Below the pieces are notes generated by a model. The model worked only from the letters and a program-made list of their open reading frames with translations, searched no databases and had not been told where the DNA came from. A stretch of 41,720 nucleotides of DNA from a virus (lineage: Duplodnaviria; Heunggongvirae; Uroviricota; Caudoviricetes): IMG/VR virus record IMGVR_UViG_2923360383_000008. One strand, given 5' to 3'. Of the stretch, positions 4,993 to 18,242 are shown piece by piece. The position numbers were made by a program, and so were the translations under genes. Numbering within the stretch: position 1 is the stretch's first letter; every line of letters starts with the position of its first letter.

Positions 4993-5125
4993 TTTTTGGG
5001 ACTCCTGGCTGATTAAGTATGTCGATAAGGCGTTTCCATCCGTCACGTAATTTACGGGTGATTCGTTCAAGTAAAGATTCGGAAGGGCAGCCAGCAACAG
5101 GCCACCCTGCAATGGCATATTGCAT
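4961..5125 (-). CDS. cIII: cIII, FtsH protease inhibitor
   Basis: Hand translation of minus strand gives [54 protein letters not shown], matching lambda cIII apart from one residue; not in ORF track because <60 aa. Confidence 0.85.
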   Translation of the reverse strand: MQYAIAGWPVAGCPSESLLERITRKLRDGWKRLIDILNQPGVPKNGSNNYGYPD

Positions 5126-5197
5126 GGTGTGCTCCTTATTTATACATAACGAAAAACGCCTCGAGTGAAGCGTAATTGGTATGCGGTAACGCCGCGC

Positions 5198-10272: not shown

Positions 10273-11172
10273 ATGACAAATACAGCAAAAATACTCAACT
10301 TCTGCAGAGGTAACTTTGCCAAACAGGAGCGTAATGTGGCAGATCTCGATGATGGTTACGCCAGACTATCAAATATGCTGCTTGAGGCTTATTCAGGCGC
10401 AGATCTGACCAAGCGACAGTTTAAAGTGCTGCTTGCCATTCTGCGTAAAACCTATGGATGGAATAAACCAATGGACAGAATCACCGATTCTCAACTTAGC
10501 GAGATTACAAAGTTACCCGTCAAACGGTGCAATGAAGCCAAGTTAGAACTCGTCAGAATGAATATTATCAAGCAGCAAGGCGGCATGTTTGGACCAAATA
10601 AAAACATCTCAGAATGGTGTATCCCTCAAAACGAGGGAAAATCCCCTAAAACGAGGGATAAAACATCCCTCAAATTGGGGGATTGCTATCCCTCAAAACA
10701 GGGGGACACAAAAGACACTATTACAAAAGAAAAAAGAAAAGATTATTCGTCAGAGAATTCTGGCGAATCCTCTGACCAGCCAGAAAACGACCTTTCTGTG
10801 GTGAAACCGGATGCTGCAATTCAGAGCGGCAGCAAGTGGGGGACAGCAGAAGACCTGACCGCCGCAGAATGGATGTTTGACATGGTGAAGACCATCGCGC
10901 CATCAGCCAGAAAACCGAATTTTGCAGGGTGGGCTAACGATATCCGCCTGATGCGTGAACGTGACGGACGTAACCATCGCGACATGTGTGTACTGTTCCG
11001 CTGGGCATGCCAGGACAACTTCTGGTCCGGTAACGTGCTGAGCCCGGCCAAACTCCGCGACAAGTGGACCCAGCTCGAAATCAACCGTAACAAGCAACAG
11101 GCAGGTGTGACAGCCTGCAAACCAAAACTCGACCTGACAAACACTGACTGGATTTACGGGGTGGATTTATGA
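10273..11172 (+). CDS. O: Replication initiator O
   Basis: 299 aa, lambda O length; contains ori iterons internally; RBS ACAGGAG. Confidence 0.95.
   Translation: MTNTAKILNFCRGNFAKQERNVADLDDGYARLSNMLLEAYSGADLTKRQFKVLLAILRKTYGWNKPMDRITDSQLSEITKLPVKRCNEAKLELVRMNIIKQQGGMFGPNKNISEWCIPQNEGKSPKTRDKTSLKLGDCYPSKQGDTKDTITKEKRKDYSSENSGESSDQPENDLSVVKPDAAIQSGSKWGTAEDLTAAEWMFDMVKTIAPSARKPNFAGWANDIRLMRERDGRNHRDMCVLFRWACQDNFWSGNVLSPAKLRDKWTQLEINRNKQQAGVTACKPKLDLTNTDWIYGVDL
10621..10760 (+). repeat. ori iterons (four ~19-bp ATCCCTCAAAACGAGGGA-type repeats) plus AT-rich tract
   Basis: Direct repeats atccctcaaaacgagggaaa / atcccctaaaacgagggata / catccctcaaattggggga / atccctcaaaacaggggga followed by an A-rich stretch, inside O. 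Confidence 0.85.
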
Positions 11173-13918: not shown

Positions 13919-14281
13919 GTGAATACCTACAGCATCACATTACCCTGGCCTCCGAGCAATAATCGCTATTACCGCCATAATCGCGGGCGCACGCACGTCA
14001 GCGCAGAGGGGCAGGCATACCGCGATAACGTCGCCCGAATCATTAAAAACGCAATGCTGGATATCGGCCTGGCTATGCCTGTGAAAATCCGCATTGAGTG
14101 CCACATGCCGGATCGCCGTCGCCGTGACCTGGATAATCTGCAAAAAGCCGCTTTTGACGCACTCACTAAAGCAGGTTTCTGGCTGGATGATGCTCAGGTC
14201 GTTGATTACCGCGTTGTGAAGATGCCTGTTACCAAAGGTGGGAGGCTGGAACTGACCATCACCGAAATGGGGAATGAATGA
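13919..14281 (+). CDS. rusA: RusA Holliday-junction resolvase
   Basis: 120 aa [34 protein letters not shown]... matches E. coli/DLP12 RusA as I recall; GTG start. Confidence 0.9.
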
Positions 14282-14418
14282 TGTTTGAGTTTAATATGGC
14301 AGAACTTCTTCGCCACCGCTGGGGGCGTCTGCGCTTATATCGTTTCCTCGGTTCTGTTTTGACCGATTACCGAATACTGAAGAATTACGCCAAAACCCTG
14401 ACAGGAACAGGAGTATGA
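14278..14418 (+). CDS. Small protein (YlcG-like)
   Basis: 46 codons [23 protein letters not shown]... found by hand; ATGA overlap with rusA; below ORF-track cutoff. Confidence 0.4.
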
Positions 14419-14503
14419 AGTCAGAGATAACAATCAACTAATACTGTTTTGTTGATTTTTGCTTGTAATTGGCGTTCTGGTCTGATTTTTGTGGAGTAAG
14501 TTG

Positions 14504-14887
14504 ATGCGTGATATTCAGATGGTTCTTGAGCGTTGGGGTGCGTGGGCGGCTAATAATCATGAAGATGTGACCTGGTCGTCCATTGCCGCCGGTTTTAAGG
14601 GATTAATTCCTTCAAAAGTAAAATCTCGCCCGCAATGTTGTGACGATGACGCGATGATCATTTGCGGGTGCATGGCCCGTCTGAAAAAGAACAACAGCGA
14701 TTTACACGATTTATTAGTAGATTATTATGTATGTGGTATGACATTCATGTCACTGGCAAGTAAGCATTGCTGCTCGGATGGTTATATCGGGAAAAGGTTA
14801 CAGAAGGCTGAGGGCATAATTGAAGGGATGTTAATGGCATTAGATATCCGGTTAGATATGGATATCGTTGCTAATAATTCTAATTGA
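14504..14887 (+). CDS. Q-like late-gene antiterminator
   Basis: 127 aa from ATG 14504 (RBS GGAG); Cys-rich ([12 protein letters not shown]...CC); located between rusA and lysis module; ORF-track start 14489 is a TTG. Confidence 0.8.
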
Positions 14888-15024
14888 TATGCAATTGTTT
14901 ACTAAAAGTTATTAAAAATGGGGCGTGGAAACGCCCCCAAAATAAAGGGTAATATATAACAGAAGGTTTATATAGTAAGAAGCAAGGTAGTGCTTCTAAA
15001 GGAAGTGGCTTGAGGGCTCCACTT

Positions 15025-15064
15025 ATATGTTGCGGAGGCAAAGCCTCCCGCAACATATCTTTTT
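15025..15064 (+). terminator. Strong intrinsic terminator downstream of Q
   Basis: 14-bp stem (one bulge) ATATGTTGCGGAGGC-aaa-GCCTCCCGCAACATAT followed by CTTTTT. Confidence 0.5.
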
Positions 15065-15075
15065 CGTAAGTCAGA

Positions 15076-16158
15076 TTAGAACTGATAAACCAGACCTACA
15101 GCGACGATGTCGTCGGTATCAATACCAGCTGTTTTGGTAAACTTACTATCGTCAATTAAGTTGATTTTGTAATCAACAAAAGTGGACATGTTTTTATTAA
15201 AGTAGTAAGTAGCACCGACATCGACATACTTGACTAAGTCTCGGTCACCATGAACACCAAGGTCTTTACCTTTTGACTGAAGGTAAGCAACAGATGGACG
15301 CAGACCGAAGTCAAACTGATATTGTGCTACTGCTTCAAAGTTTTGTGCTTTGTTTGCAATATGGTTATTACCAAAAACGGTCATATTCTGAGTTTCAGAA
15401 TATGTGGTAGCCAGATAGATATTGTTCGCATCATATTTCAGGCCTGCAGCCCATACTTCCGCATTTTTGCCGGAGGCATTGAATTTGCTCTTACCATAGG
15501 CGACCTGACCGTCAGTGCGATCTGATTTAGCATAGGTTGCACCCACGCCGAATCCTTCATACTCATAAGTAGTGGAGAAACCGAAACCATCACCATTGGC
15601 TTCAGTTACGTCAGTGCGGTCATTTTTACCCTGATACTGAGCAGCAAAGTTCAGGCCATCGACCAGACCAAAGAAGTCGTTGTTACGATAAGTTGCAACA
15701 CCAGTAGTGCGACCAGTCATGAACACATCTGTTTGGGTCCAGGTATCACCACCGAATTCTGGCAGAACGTCAGTCCACGCACCGATGTCGTATGCTACAC
15801 CGTAGTTACGGCCGTAATCGATTGAGCCGTAATCACCAAATTTCAGGCCTGCAAATGCAAGACGGGTTTTGTCTTTGGAAGAACCTTGAGATTCAGCACG
15901 GTTGCCTTTGAATTCATATTCCCACTGACCGAAACCAGTCAGTTGATCGTTGATTTGGGTTTCACCTTTGAAGCCAAGACGGGCATAAGTAGTATCACCA
16001 TCATCTGCATCATTAGAGGAGAAGTAGTGCTTGGCATTAACTTTCCCGTATAGATCCAGCTTGTTACTGTCTTTATTATAAATTTCAGCTGCCTGAGCAG
16101 ACATCGCCATCAGTACTGATGCAGCTACAGCAGAAATTGCCACTGTTAATTTTTTCAT
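15076..16158 (-). CDS. OmpC/NmpC/Lc-type general porin (lysogenic-conversion moron)
   Basis: 360 aa from [14 protein letters not shown] (signal peptide ...[10 protein letters not shown]), C-terminal ...VGLVYQF beta-barrel terminus; antisense to the late operon. Confidence 0.9.
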
Positions 16159-16585
16159 TGTACGCCCTTTTTTTGAACTATTATTAAAAAATGATGTCAC
16201 TGCGCGATAAATATTCATCTAATCAATGTGATTATTTCAAGATGTAAGTTTTAGTTTCTCATTTAATTTGTGAAGTAGATCTCTATTTTTATCTGAACCT
16301 TTTCTATCTAATCCTATTCATGGCTCTTGTCTGAACAAAAATAAATCTATTAGCTAATTTATATTAATGGCACTTATTTATAAGTGCTCTATAATTCTTT
16401 AGCTTAATTTAAACAAACTAAAAATAACATTGGAAATTATTAACTGGTTATTTGTTGAAGTTTTCTTATGCATTTGTGGTGGTGTTTTGAACACTCGGTG
16501 GCATTCTCACAAATATCATTTAGTAGTTTACGTACGTAAAAAATTGGTTATGCTGTTAAGAGTGGTTACTTCGTCACACAGCTTA

Positions 16586-16610
16586 AACCCGCCGTCGAGC
16601 GGGTTTTTCC
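16586..16610 (+). terminator. Intrinsic terminator upstream of lysis genes (candidate tR')
   Basis: Hairpin AACCCGC-cgtcga-GCGGGTT followed by TTTTTCCATTTTTT about 140 nt upstream of holin. Confidence 0.45.
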
Positions 16611-16746
16611 ATTTTTTGAGTCTCGATATTAGCTGATAACCCAATACCTGAGTTATTCACTGACTCCGAATCTGTTACGTTTCTGCCTTTATTGCGATAC
16701 GTAGTATCCCCTTAATTTACACCCGCTTTGTCTGCGAGGTGGGGTT

Positions 16747-16962
16747 ATGAAATCCATGGATAAGTTAACAACGGGTGTCGCCTATGGTACCTCAGCAGGT
16801 AGTGCCGGGTACTGGTTTTTACAGTTGCTCGATAAAGTCACGCCCTCACAGTGGGCGGCAATAGGTGTGCTGGGTAGCCTGGTATTTGGCCTGCTGACGT
16901 ACCTGACAAACCTTTATTTCAAGATTAAAGAAGATAAGCGCAAGGCTGCGAGAGGTGAATAA
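16747..16962 (+). CDS. Class II holin (phage 21 S-type pinholin, dual start)
   Basis: 71 aa [26 protein letters not shown]... two TM segments; Met1-Lys-Ser-Met4 dual-start motif. Confidence 0.85.
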
Positions 16963-17459
16963 TGCCTCCATCATTACGAAAAGCCGTTGCTGCTGCTATT
17001 GGTGGCGGAGCAATTGCTATAGCATCAGTGTTAATCACTGGCCCAAGTGGTAACGATGGTCTGGAAGGTGTCAGCTACATACCATACAAAGATATTGTTG
17101 GTGTATGGACTGTATGTCACGGGCATACAGGAAAAGACATCATGCTCGGTAAAACGTATACCAAAGCAGAATGCAAAGCCCTCCTGAATAAAGACCTTGC
17201 CACGGTCGCCAGACAAATTAACCCGTACATCAAAGTCGATATACCGGAAACAATGCGCGGCGCTCTTTACTCATTCGTTTACAACGTGGGTGCTGGCAAT
17301 TTCAGAACATCGACGCTTCTTCGCAAAATAAACCAGGGCGATATCAAAGGCGCATGTGATCAGCTACGTCGCTGGACATATGCTGGCGGTAAGCAATGGA
17401 AAGGTCTCATGACTCGTCGTGAGATTGAGCGTGAAATCTGTTTGTGGGGTCAGCAATGA
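16962..17459 (+). CDS. SAR endolysin (T4-lysozyme-like muramidase with N-terminal signal-anchor-release domain)
   Basis: 165 aa; N-terminal Gly/Ala-rich hydrophobic stretch [18 protein letters not shown] then lysozyme-like core. Confidence 0.9.
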
Positions 17460-17917
17460 ACAGAGTAACCGCGATTATCTCCGCTCTGGTTATCTGCATC
17501 ATCGTCTGCCTGTCATGGGCTGTTAATCATTACCGTGATAACGCCATTACCTACAAAGCCCAGCGCGACAAAAATGCCAGAGAACTGACGCTGGCGAACG
17601 CGGTAATTACTGACATACAGATGCGTCAGCGTGATGTTGCTGCGCTCGATGCAAAATACACGAAGGAGTTAGCTGATGCGAAAGCTGAAAATGATGCTCT
17701 GCGTGATGATGTTGCCGCTGGTCGTCGTCGGTTGCACATCAAAGCAGTCTGTCAGTCAGTGCGTGAAGCCACCACCGCCTCCGGCGTGGATAATGCAGCC
17801 TCCCCCCGACTGGCAGACACCGCTGAACGGGATTATTTCACCCTCAGAGAGAGGCTGATCACTATGCAAAAACAACTGGAAGGAACCCAGAAGTATATTA
17901 ATGAGCAGTGCAGATAG
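17456..17917 (+). CDS. Rz i-spanin
   Basis: 153 aa with N-terminal TM and coiled-coil-prone body; ATGA overlap with endolysin. Confidence 0.8.
17676..17858 (+). CDS. Rz1 o-spanin lipoprotein (embedded in Rz, +1 frame)
   Basis: 60 aa; lipobox VVVGC; proline-rich ([15 protein letters not shown]). Confidence 0.7.
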
Positions 17918-17948: not shown

Positions 17949-18242
17949 TTATTGTGAGCAATACACACGCGCTTCCAGCGGAGTATAAATGCCTAAAGTA
18001 ATAAAACCGAGCAATCCATTTACGAATGTTTGCTGGGTTTCTGTTTTAACAACATTTTCTGCACCACCACAAATTTTTGCTGCATCGACAGTTTTCTTCT
18101 GCCCAATTCCCGAAACGAAGAAATGATGGGTGATGGTTTCCTTTGGTGTTACTGCTGTAGGTTTGTTTCCAACAGTAAACGTCTGTTGAGCACATCCTGT
18201 AATAAGCATTGCCAGAGCGGCAGAAAACAACATTTTTTTCAT
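17949..18242 (-). CDS. bor: Bor lipoprotein (serum-resistance moron)
   Basis: 97 aa MKKMLFSAALAMLITGCAQQTFTV...EARVYCSQ matches lambda Bor; lipobox ITGC. Confidence 0.85.
   Translation of the reverse strand: MKKMLFSAALAMLITGCAQQTFTVGNKPTAVTPKETITHHFFVSGIGQKKTVDAAKICGGAENVVKTETQQTFVNGLLGFITLGIYTPLEARVYCSQ

Follow-up and report, generated by a model that had tools for sequence, protein, structure and literature searches.

The porin genes nmpC and lc have been described as genes of lambdoid phages (Blasband 1986, cited in PMC11677980). In Escherichia coli K-12, nmpC is expressed from its own promoter, PnmpC, which lies in the 199 bp that precede the start codon, whose transcription start was determined by 5' rapid amplification of cDNA ends (5'-RACE), and which is activated by Crp and repressed by OmpR, IHF, and MprA (PMC11677980). 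The 3' untranslated region (UTR) of the phage porin, named ipeX, lowers the host porins OmpC and OmpF (PMC12197685; PMC8065619). Here we analyze the corresponding locus in a 41,720-nt Caudoviricetes record, IMG/VR IMGVR_UViG_2923360383_000008 (the window hereafter, meaning the whole stretch), in which a minus-strand porin gene stands between the gene for the late antiterminator Q and the lysis genes. The DLP12 prophage of K-12 has the same gene order, quuD-nmpC(-)-essD-rrrD-rzpD-borD, and its Q-porin and porin-holin spacers are 88-95% identical to those of the window. In K-12, nmpC is split by IS5 after codon 346 and DLP12 is a remnant, whereas the porin copy of the window is intact and its prophage looks complete. 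Phage 434 is also annotated with the window's Q-porin-lysis layout. The lysogenic-conversion porin Lc of lambdoid phage PA-2 (Blasband et al. 1986; Castillo-Keller et al. 2006) is likewise a phage porin expressed from the prophage, with an ipeX 3' UTR that lowers OmpC and OmpF.

We read the locus as a classical DLP12/PA-2-type lysogenic-conversion porin cassette inserted between Q and the late promoter pR', so that late transcription never crosses the porin gene, and we put the probability of this reading at about 0.85. The porin would be transcribed leftward from its own host-regulated promoter at 16159-16357, as reported for K-12 nmpC and as 95% identity to that region suggests. Its mRNA would carry a structured ipeX 3' UTR of ~165 nt that includes the hairpin at 15025-15058 (hairpin B) and would end at a further hairpin beside Q (hairpin A); another 3' end would follow hairpin B, as documented for the K-12 homologue. 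Rightward late transcription would start at pR', at about 16561, and would stop without Q at the hairpin at 16585-16606. Made from the early rightward transcript of a gene 1.64 kb upstream, Q would act in trans at pR' (16527-16569) and carry polymerase past this hairpin into the holin, endolysin, Rz, and structural genes. A second, stronger rightward start at ~16191, beside the porin start codon, would feed the same hairpin. Since pR' initiates 403 nt rightward of the porin start codon, late transcription would not cross the porin. A homologous Q protein and a homologous site together suggest that this pR' depends on Q, and its start and 3' end are suggested by those mapped for the K-12 and Sp5 homologues. 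The elements of late control are as follows.

14504-14887, plus strand: Q, late antiterminator of the QuuD type and the Q21/Q933W family (PF06530, E 8e-54; Q21 structure, E 4e-8)
16527-16561, plus strand: late promoter pR' (-35 TTTACG at 16527-16532, 16-nt spacer, -10 TATGCT at 16549-16554, predicted start A16561)
16557-16569, plus strand: invariant block TAAGAGTGGTTAC, from -4 to +9, which we infer to be a candidate Q-loading or pause region
16585-16610, plus strand: candidate for the terminator tR', AAACCCGCC-GTCGA-GCGGGTTT and then TTCCATTTTTT (terminator scan, K-12 3' end, and homologue in Shiga toxin [Stx] phages)

The pR' unit emerged from a distant search with the porin-holin spacer, in which positions 16524-16608 matched several hundred Stx-phage records at ~78%, at the end of their Q gene. 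In the matching VT2-Sakai segment (L002), a putative late promoter (1204-1231), a qut site (1245-1252), and a Rho-independent terminator (1264-1286) are annotated, and the alignment to this segment defines the -35, -10, invariant block, and hairpin positions of the window. The Q proteins match as well, with 81% identity over 120 amino acids (aa) between the window and VT2-Sakai (Sp5), including the region aligned with the Q21 helix-turn-helix, and ~76% nucleotide identity. Across 124 copies, the homology between the two architectures extends from the -35 as far as the T run, between unrelated flanks. The TAAGAGTGGTTAC block, which occurs once in the window, is identical in the window, K-12, 933W-type phages, and Shigella phage SfII, although its flanks have diverged. 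The hairpin at 16585-16606, followed by TTCCATTTTT, is the only terminator-like site that the terminator scan found from pR' to the holin.

Viral contigs were scanned for the pR' motif, and the 120 resulting loci were classified by Q type and porin.

QuuD-type Q with a minus-strand porin: 79 of the 120 loci; motif 1641-1660 nt past the Q end and 204-221 nt before the holin
Q933-type Q, no porin: 26 of the 120 loci; motif overlapping Q by 10 nt, with the holin 3.4-4.9 kb off where seen
Q not in the locus, porin present: 11 of the 120 loci; motif 204-221 nt before the holin
Q not in the locus, no porin seen (upstream-truncated locus): 4 of the 120 loci; motif 220 nt before the holin (3 loci)

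The slot filled by the porin cassette thus lies between Q and pR'. In the window the unit lies 1640 nt past the Q stop codon and hence is not directly adjacent to Q; because Q acts in trans, such adjacency is customary rather than mechanistically required. One QuuD-plus-porin locus (L045, IMG/VR contig 3300014519_000046, motif at 1899) diverges from all others right after the tR' T run, which suggests a recombination breakpoint at the end of the late-control unit.

Transcript data from two homologues place the start on the same base. In Sp5, the primary pR' start was mapped by differential RNA sequencing (dRNA-seq), with a 3' end 258 nt downstream and an RNase E cut between GU and AUU at +173 (PMC7547250). 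The VT2-Sakai sequence has GTATT at L002 1409-1413, and the T run of its second terminator ends at ~1495; because both the 258-nt and the +173 distances fit only one base, the Sp5 start is L002:1238. This base lies seven bases past the annotated -10 and aligns with A16561 of the window. For K-12, the start coordinate was forecast ahead of the look-up as NC_000913.3 577,229, equal to U00096.2 576,452 with what we take to be a 777-bp offset between the two versions at this locus, and a start was found listed there. The look-up covered six coordinates of the K-12 Cappable-seq list, namely the predicted base and two neighbors in each genome version, of which only 576,452 (+) is listed, with a score of 1.7 (PMC4782308); at the local density of ~1 plus-strand start per 385 nt, a chance match to one of three positions has a probability of <1%. 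A K-12 plus-strand 3' end at 577,275-577,283, with the sequence ...AAACCCGCCGUCGAGCGGGUUUUUCC, corresponds to the hairpin at 16585-16606 and is classed as 'essD 5' UTR' (TRS on RNAtag-seq/term-seq; PMC10687069, Supplementary Data 2 and 3). The original prediction had recognized this hairpin upstream of the holin, and its place in the late leader is upheld; the accompanying claim that late transcription must run antisense through the porin is not supported, as a pR' homologue lies downstream of the porin, with a K-12 start on the same base.

Several observations weigh against this reading. The K-12 start match depends on the assumed 777-bp offset between the genome versions, and the start and 3'-end data come from the K-12 and Sp5 homologues and apply to the window by analogy. 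The pR' hexamers match the consensus at just 8 of 12 positions, which is why our promoter scan did not flag pR', and the K-12 start at this base is weak, with its score of 1.7 against 90 at ~16191. The DLP12 literature reportedly names a sigma-E-dependent promoter, 'essDp', whose +1 falls near 16207 by primer arithmetic. In Sp5, polymerase runs past the homologous first hairpin even in the absence of Q and comes to a halt 258 nt downstream (PMC7547250), so the hairpin at 16585-16606 may be a leaky terminator. By analogy, this conserved hairpin may terminate weakly, or it may be part of Q loading or pausing rather than tR' proper. The Sp5 first hairpin with its U7 run (L002 1264-1286) sits 27-49 nt after the pR' start, and the 258-nt StxS precursor ends at the second terminator.

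The porin cassette itself comprises the following elements.

15076-16158, minus strand: porin of the NmpC/Lc/OmpD-like kind in the OmpC family, 360 aa with a 23-aa signal peptide (Pfam, NCBIfam, PDB alignment, and comparison with K-12 NmpC)
16159-16357, minus strand: porin promoter and regulatory region, the PnmpC equivalent (boundaries from PMC11677980; 95% identical to K-12)
14912-15075, minus strand: porin 3' UTR, equivalent to the published ipeX region (~165 nt, four hairpins; near-identical to the K-12 quuD-nmpC spacer)
14909-14937, minus strand: hairpin A, intrinsic terminator of the leftward porin/ipeX transcript (scan match GGGGCGTTTCCACGCCCC + ATTTTTAATA; folding free energy [dG] -13.8 kcal/mol)
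15025-15064, no strand assigned: hairpin B, a stem-loop (15025-15058) within the ipeX 3' UTR, with CTTTTT next to it on the plus strand
16175-16201, plus strand: rightward promoter P1 (-10-like TATTAT at 16179-16184; start ~16191; Cappable-seq start in K-12)

The original prediction of a complete OmpC/NmpC-type porin with a signal peptide, on the minus strand between Q and the holin, was borne out. The open reading frame (ORF) is intact at 15076-16158; the program-made ORF list extends its start to 16218, which is merely an in-frame ATG further upstream. The Pfam profile Porin_1 (PF00267) matches over its full length (E 2e-151; residues 49-380 of the long ORF on profile positions 1-337 of 337), and the 16-strand porin domain is thus covered end to end. 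The protein scores 521 bits against the NCBIfam 'porin OmpC' subfamily (cut-off, 484) and matches a solved OmpC structure with E 6e-137. Residues 24-360 align with the mature OmpC, OmpF, and PhoE chains in PDB; because the mature chains align only from residue 24, residues 1-23 constitute a signal peptide ending in ...SAQA. The C terminus, ...GLVYQF, provides the terminal aromatic residue for outer-membrane assembly. By these matches the window protein is a member of the general bacterial porin family (OmpC/OmpF/PhoE), with predicted trimeric channel activity. Over the 346 codons upstream of the K-12 IS5 insertion, it is 91% identical to K-12 NmpC. The differences cluster at residues ~181-235 and 263-268, in two short, indel-containing blocks, and the remainder is almost identical; diversifying selection on surface loops, through phage receptors or immunity, would produce such a pattern. 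Automated annotation names this porin 'OmpC' and marks neither ipeX nor pR'.

That the cassette brings its own expression signals agrees with the own-promoter expression documented for K-12 nmpC (PMC11677980), and two elements can be added that the original prediction lacked, hairpin A (14937..14920, minus strand) and the published ipeX element. The 164-nt porin 3' UTR folds at -53.6 kcal/mol (z -6.1), and its variation among related loci falls mostly in loops and bulges. RNAalifold on 19 ipeX variants gave zero double compensatory changes and just three one-sided changes, all from A-U to G-U, which retain pairing only in the minus-strand RNA. Covariation support for the structure is weak because no double compensatory changes occur, and the G-U changes are weak evidence pointing to the minus strand as the structured RNA. 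From the literature on ipeX, repression of OmpC and OmpF by the UTR RNA of this window is predicted. In Rfam searches (E-value mode over 14000-17500, gathering mode over the whole window), neither ipeX nor the late leader matched a family, and the hits there were at chance level; one element alone passed the gathering threshold, the lambda cIII thermoregulator at 5080-5138 (-), with 88.5 bits.

Both hairpins of the original prediction exist where it had put them, at 15025-15058 and at 16585-16606 (dG -12 kcal/mol), and are unusually stable; we followed hairpins A and B through 81 related loci, which represent 35 sequence variants. The stem of hairpin A (14937..14920), which adjoins the Q stop codon, is invariant over all 35 variants, with changes in the loop only; it is followed by ATTTTTAAT, giving a conserved U run on the minus strand only (GGGGCGTTTCCACGCCCC ATTTTTAAT). 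Hairpin B folds at -21.9 kcal/mol on the plus strand and at -22.5 kcal/mol on the minus strand (plus-strand z -6.5), and 0 of 200 shuffles fold as well. Its changes among the related loci affect the loop, a bulge, or the pairing register, and in 33 of the 81 loci the plus-strand T run that follows is shortened to TTTT+A. For the idea that 15025..15064 acts as a plus-strand terminator, the evidence is mixed: hairpin and CTTTTT are present, but the K-12 3' ends listed for hairpin B all lie on the minus strand (PMC10687069). These minus-strand ends, labelled ipeX, fall at 574,360-574,371 after hairpin A and at 574,467-574,481 just after hairpin B (PMC10687069). The 3'-end supplements of PMC7815308 and PMC11092163 have no entry for this locus.

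Upstream of the porin, the sequence is AT rich (GC content 0.27-0.34 across 16200-16500) and holds the strong rightward start. The K-12 Cappable-seq start at U00096.2 576,081 (+), score 90, maps to window position 16191 (PMC4782308) and is the strongest plus-strand start of the DLP12 region in uninduced K-12. A sigma-E-like motif, GAACTA-N16-TCACT at 16175-16201 (+), overlaps P1. PMC7918800 cites Q, RpoE, and Hha as regulators of the lysis operon and uses a reporter fragment numbered -121..+650; arithmetic with the primers of that source puts the essDp +1 near 16207, 16 nt from the Cappable-seq-mapped start, and the start at ~16191 is probably the published essDp. It lies only 33 nt from the porin start codon and is directed rightward over the porin 5' UTR and promoter. 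A further site, ATGGCA-17-TATAAT at 16367-16395 (+), is the best consensus promoter-like site of the spacer (10 of 12 matches) and was first guessed to be pR', because it lies ~190 nt before the hairpin, as in the lambda 6S RNA. It was rejected: no cognate pR' is homologous to it, K-12 does not conserve its inverted repeat, and the K-12 Cappable-seq list has no start 7 nt downstream of the equivalent site. Between its hexamers, at 16370-16387, lies an 8-bp inverted repeat, GCACTTAT-TT-ATAAGTGC, perfect in the window and imperfect in K-12, which could be a candidate operator in the porin regulatory region.

With pR' downstream of the cassette, antisense RNA across the porin body would need either early pR read-through past Q or internal antisense starts, and the antisense-silencing idea could survive in two forms, as N-modified early read-through past Q or as a head-on encounter with the start at ~16191. 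The first form, in which lytic antisense RNA from N-modified pR read-through past Q and hairpin B, or from internal starts, could dampen porin and ipeX, is possible, although we would sooner bet against it. An N-type antiterminator is annotated in the near-identical S88 prophage, hairpin B with its T run would halt only unmodified polymerase, and K-12 has plus-strand starts inside quuD (573,406) and antisense inside nmpC (575,093 and 575,453); this scenario, however, is an add-on to the placement of the cassette between Q and pR', not an alternative to it. Of the two antisense Cappable-seq starts within nmpC (U00096.2, plus strand), the stronger scores 16.8 and may be K-12 specific because it is close to the IS5 junction.

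The second form rests on position, as the start at ~16191 could interfere head-on with porin transcription. A broader and rather doubtful extension would treat the whole Q-holin spacer as a compact switch, in which the ~16191 start and porin/ipeX transcription interfere with each other, the hairpin at 16585-16606 is a deliberately leaky gate, and N read-through adds porin silencing. Such a leaky gate would explain the low-level Q-independent lysis-gene expression reported for the DLP12 biofilm and vesicle phenotypes.

That essDp (start ~16191-16207, sigma-E dependent) is the real lysis-gene promoter, with Q acting on its transcripts and 16527-16554 a relic, we consider quite unlikely. It would account for by far the strongest plus-strand start in uninduced K-12, for the sigma-E-like motif beside it, and for the Q, RpoE, and Hha regulation and the fragment numbering in PMC7918800. 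The reporter of PMC7918800, however, cannot tell which promoter Q uses because its fragment spans both. Q proteins of this family load at an element within or beside the promoter, on a sigma70-paused complex (10.1101/651190; PMC6606751), the sole segment conserved with the cognate Q933W-type system is 16527-16610, and the upstream promoter region is absent from Stx phages that carry a homologous Q.

A layout along the lines of the original prediction, with pR'/qut at 14888-15025, tR' at hairpin 15025-15064, and Q-modified transcription running antisense through the whole porin gene and silencing it during lytic growth, is hardly tenable: it has in its favor a very stable hairpin B with CTTTTT on the plus strand and the lambda and 933W precedents, in which pR' directly follows or overlaps Q, but the scan found no promoter-like site on the plus strand of 14888-15076, the K-12 Cappable-seq list has no plus-strand start in the quuD-nmpC spacer (PMC4782308), and the spacer is the conserved ipeX 3' UTR, with the minus-strand 3' ends, minus-strand G-U changes, and degraded plus-strand T run given above and with the cognate pR' homologue at 16527-16610.

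A late promoter downstream of the cargo explains how the porin can be antisense and expressed in the lysogen without being coupled to late transcription. Cargo insertion is thus possible between a Q gene and its promoter, besides downstream of tR' as in the stx case. The small RNA from pR' to the hairpin corresponds here to the 5' portion of StxS and may have a regulatory role in prophages that lack stx. The value of these results is mainly corrective. The module is very common: its 2.6-kb Q-to-holin stretch, at a coverage of at least 80%, occurs in 2392 of 5426 complete E. coli genomes, almost half of them, and in 36 phage records.

The surroundings are those of a complete lambdoid prophage, from int to tail fibers, with RusA and YlcG upstream of Q, which is annotated as quuD in E. 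coli genomes, and with the lysis genes downstream.

16747-17917, plus strand: lysis cassette of S21-type holin, SAR (signal-arrest-release)-type lysozyme, and Rz/Rz1 (PF04971, PF00959, PF03245; annotated essD/rrrD/rzpD)

The holin gene occupies 16747-16962 (PF04971). A near-identical prophage is found in E. coli S88, APEC O1, and ATCC 11775, with 100% identity over 14400-17000 and 99.6% over 10687-41720. Just past the lysis genes, at 17949-18242 (-), lies a second gene for lysogenic conversion, which encodes a Bor/Iss lipoprotein and is annotated in S88 as 'increased serum survival lipoprotein Iss'. The region from the lysis cassette to the terminase genes also encodes, at 18723-19049 (+), a small protein of the TonB family whose N terminus resembles that of a lipoprotein, an unusual prophage cargo. 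The O-like replication gene (10273-11172, plus strand) is an intact 299-aa ORF and the S88 copy is annotated as frameshifted; the window copy may be replication competent. An indel separates the window from the S88 prophage near 10637-10687. No tRNAs were found in the window.

Compared with other lambdoid phages, the slot after Q appears to accept varied cargo. Shigella phage SfII has the same pR' unit upstream of its holin, after another antisense cassette of two minus-strand hypothetical genes (L129 2267-4330), and its Q is 43% identical to that of the window. In Lambda_2E9, the slot (L130 127-3555) holds a minus-strand Blc lipocalin, YbgA, and a hypothetical gene without this pR' unit, and the terminator after Q resembles the second tR' of Stx phages. 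Lambda_2E9, whose Q is 88% identical to that of the window, was considered as an empty-site comparator and dropped, as its Q differs in the putative recognition region. Like the lambdoid morons bor/iss, lom, and stx, the porin is self-contained, with its own promoter and terminator, an AT-rich setting, and expression from the prophage; unlike them, it is set between Q and pR' on the opposite strand.

The Q of phage 21 belongs to the same Pfam family, with detectable homology to the window Q, and pR'21 is likewise followed by an S21-type holin and Rz. Q21 binds at a direct repeat of TGAGCA situated between the -35 and -10 (PMC6606751); no such repeat was found at the window pR', and the Q21 homology fades before the DNA-recognition helix. 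The Stx phages 933W, VT2-Sakai (Sp5), and H-19B, the source of StxS, have the homologous -35, -10, start, TAAGAGTGGTTAC block, first hairpin, and Q. Their pR' unit overlaps the Q end and their cargo (tRNAs and stx) lies downstream in the sense direction, whereas the cargo of the window lies upstream and antisense; their transcripts continue through the first hairpin up to another terminator, at +258, whereas the window has no second terminator before the holin. The cassette belongs to the already known NmpC/Lc prophage porin group, with an ipeX tail, and is nothing new in kind, and the late-control unit is, by homology, of the Q933W/H-19B/Sp5 type. The sole departure from the textbook layout is a pR' 1.64 kb from Q, itself found in thousands of sequenced E. 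coli.

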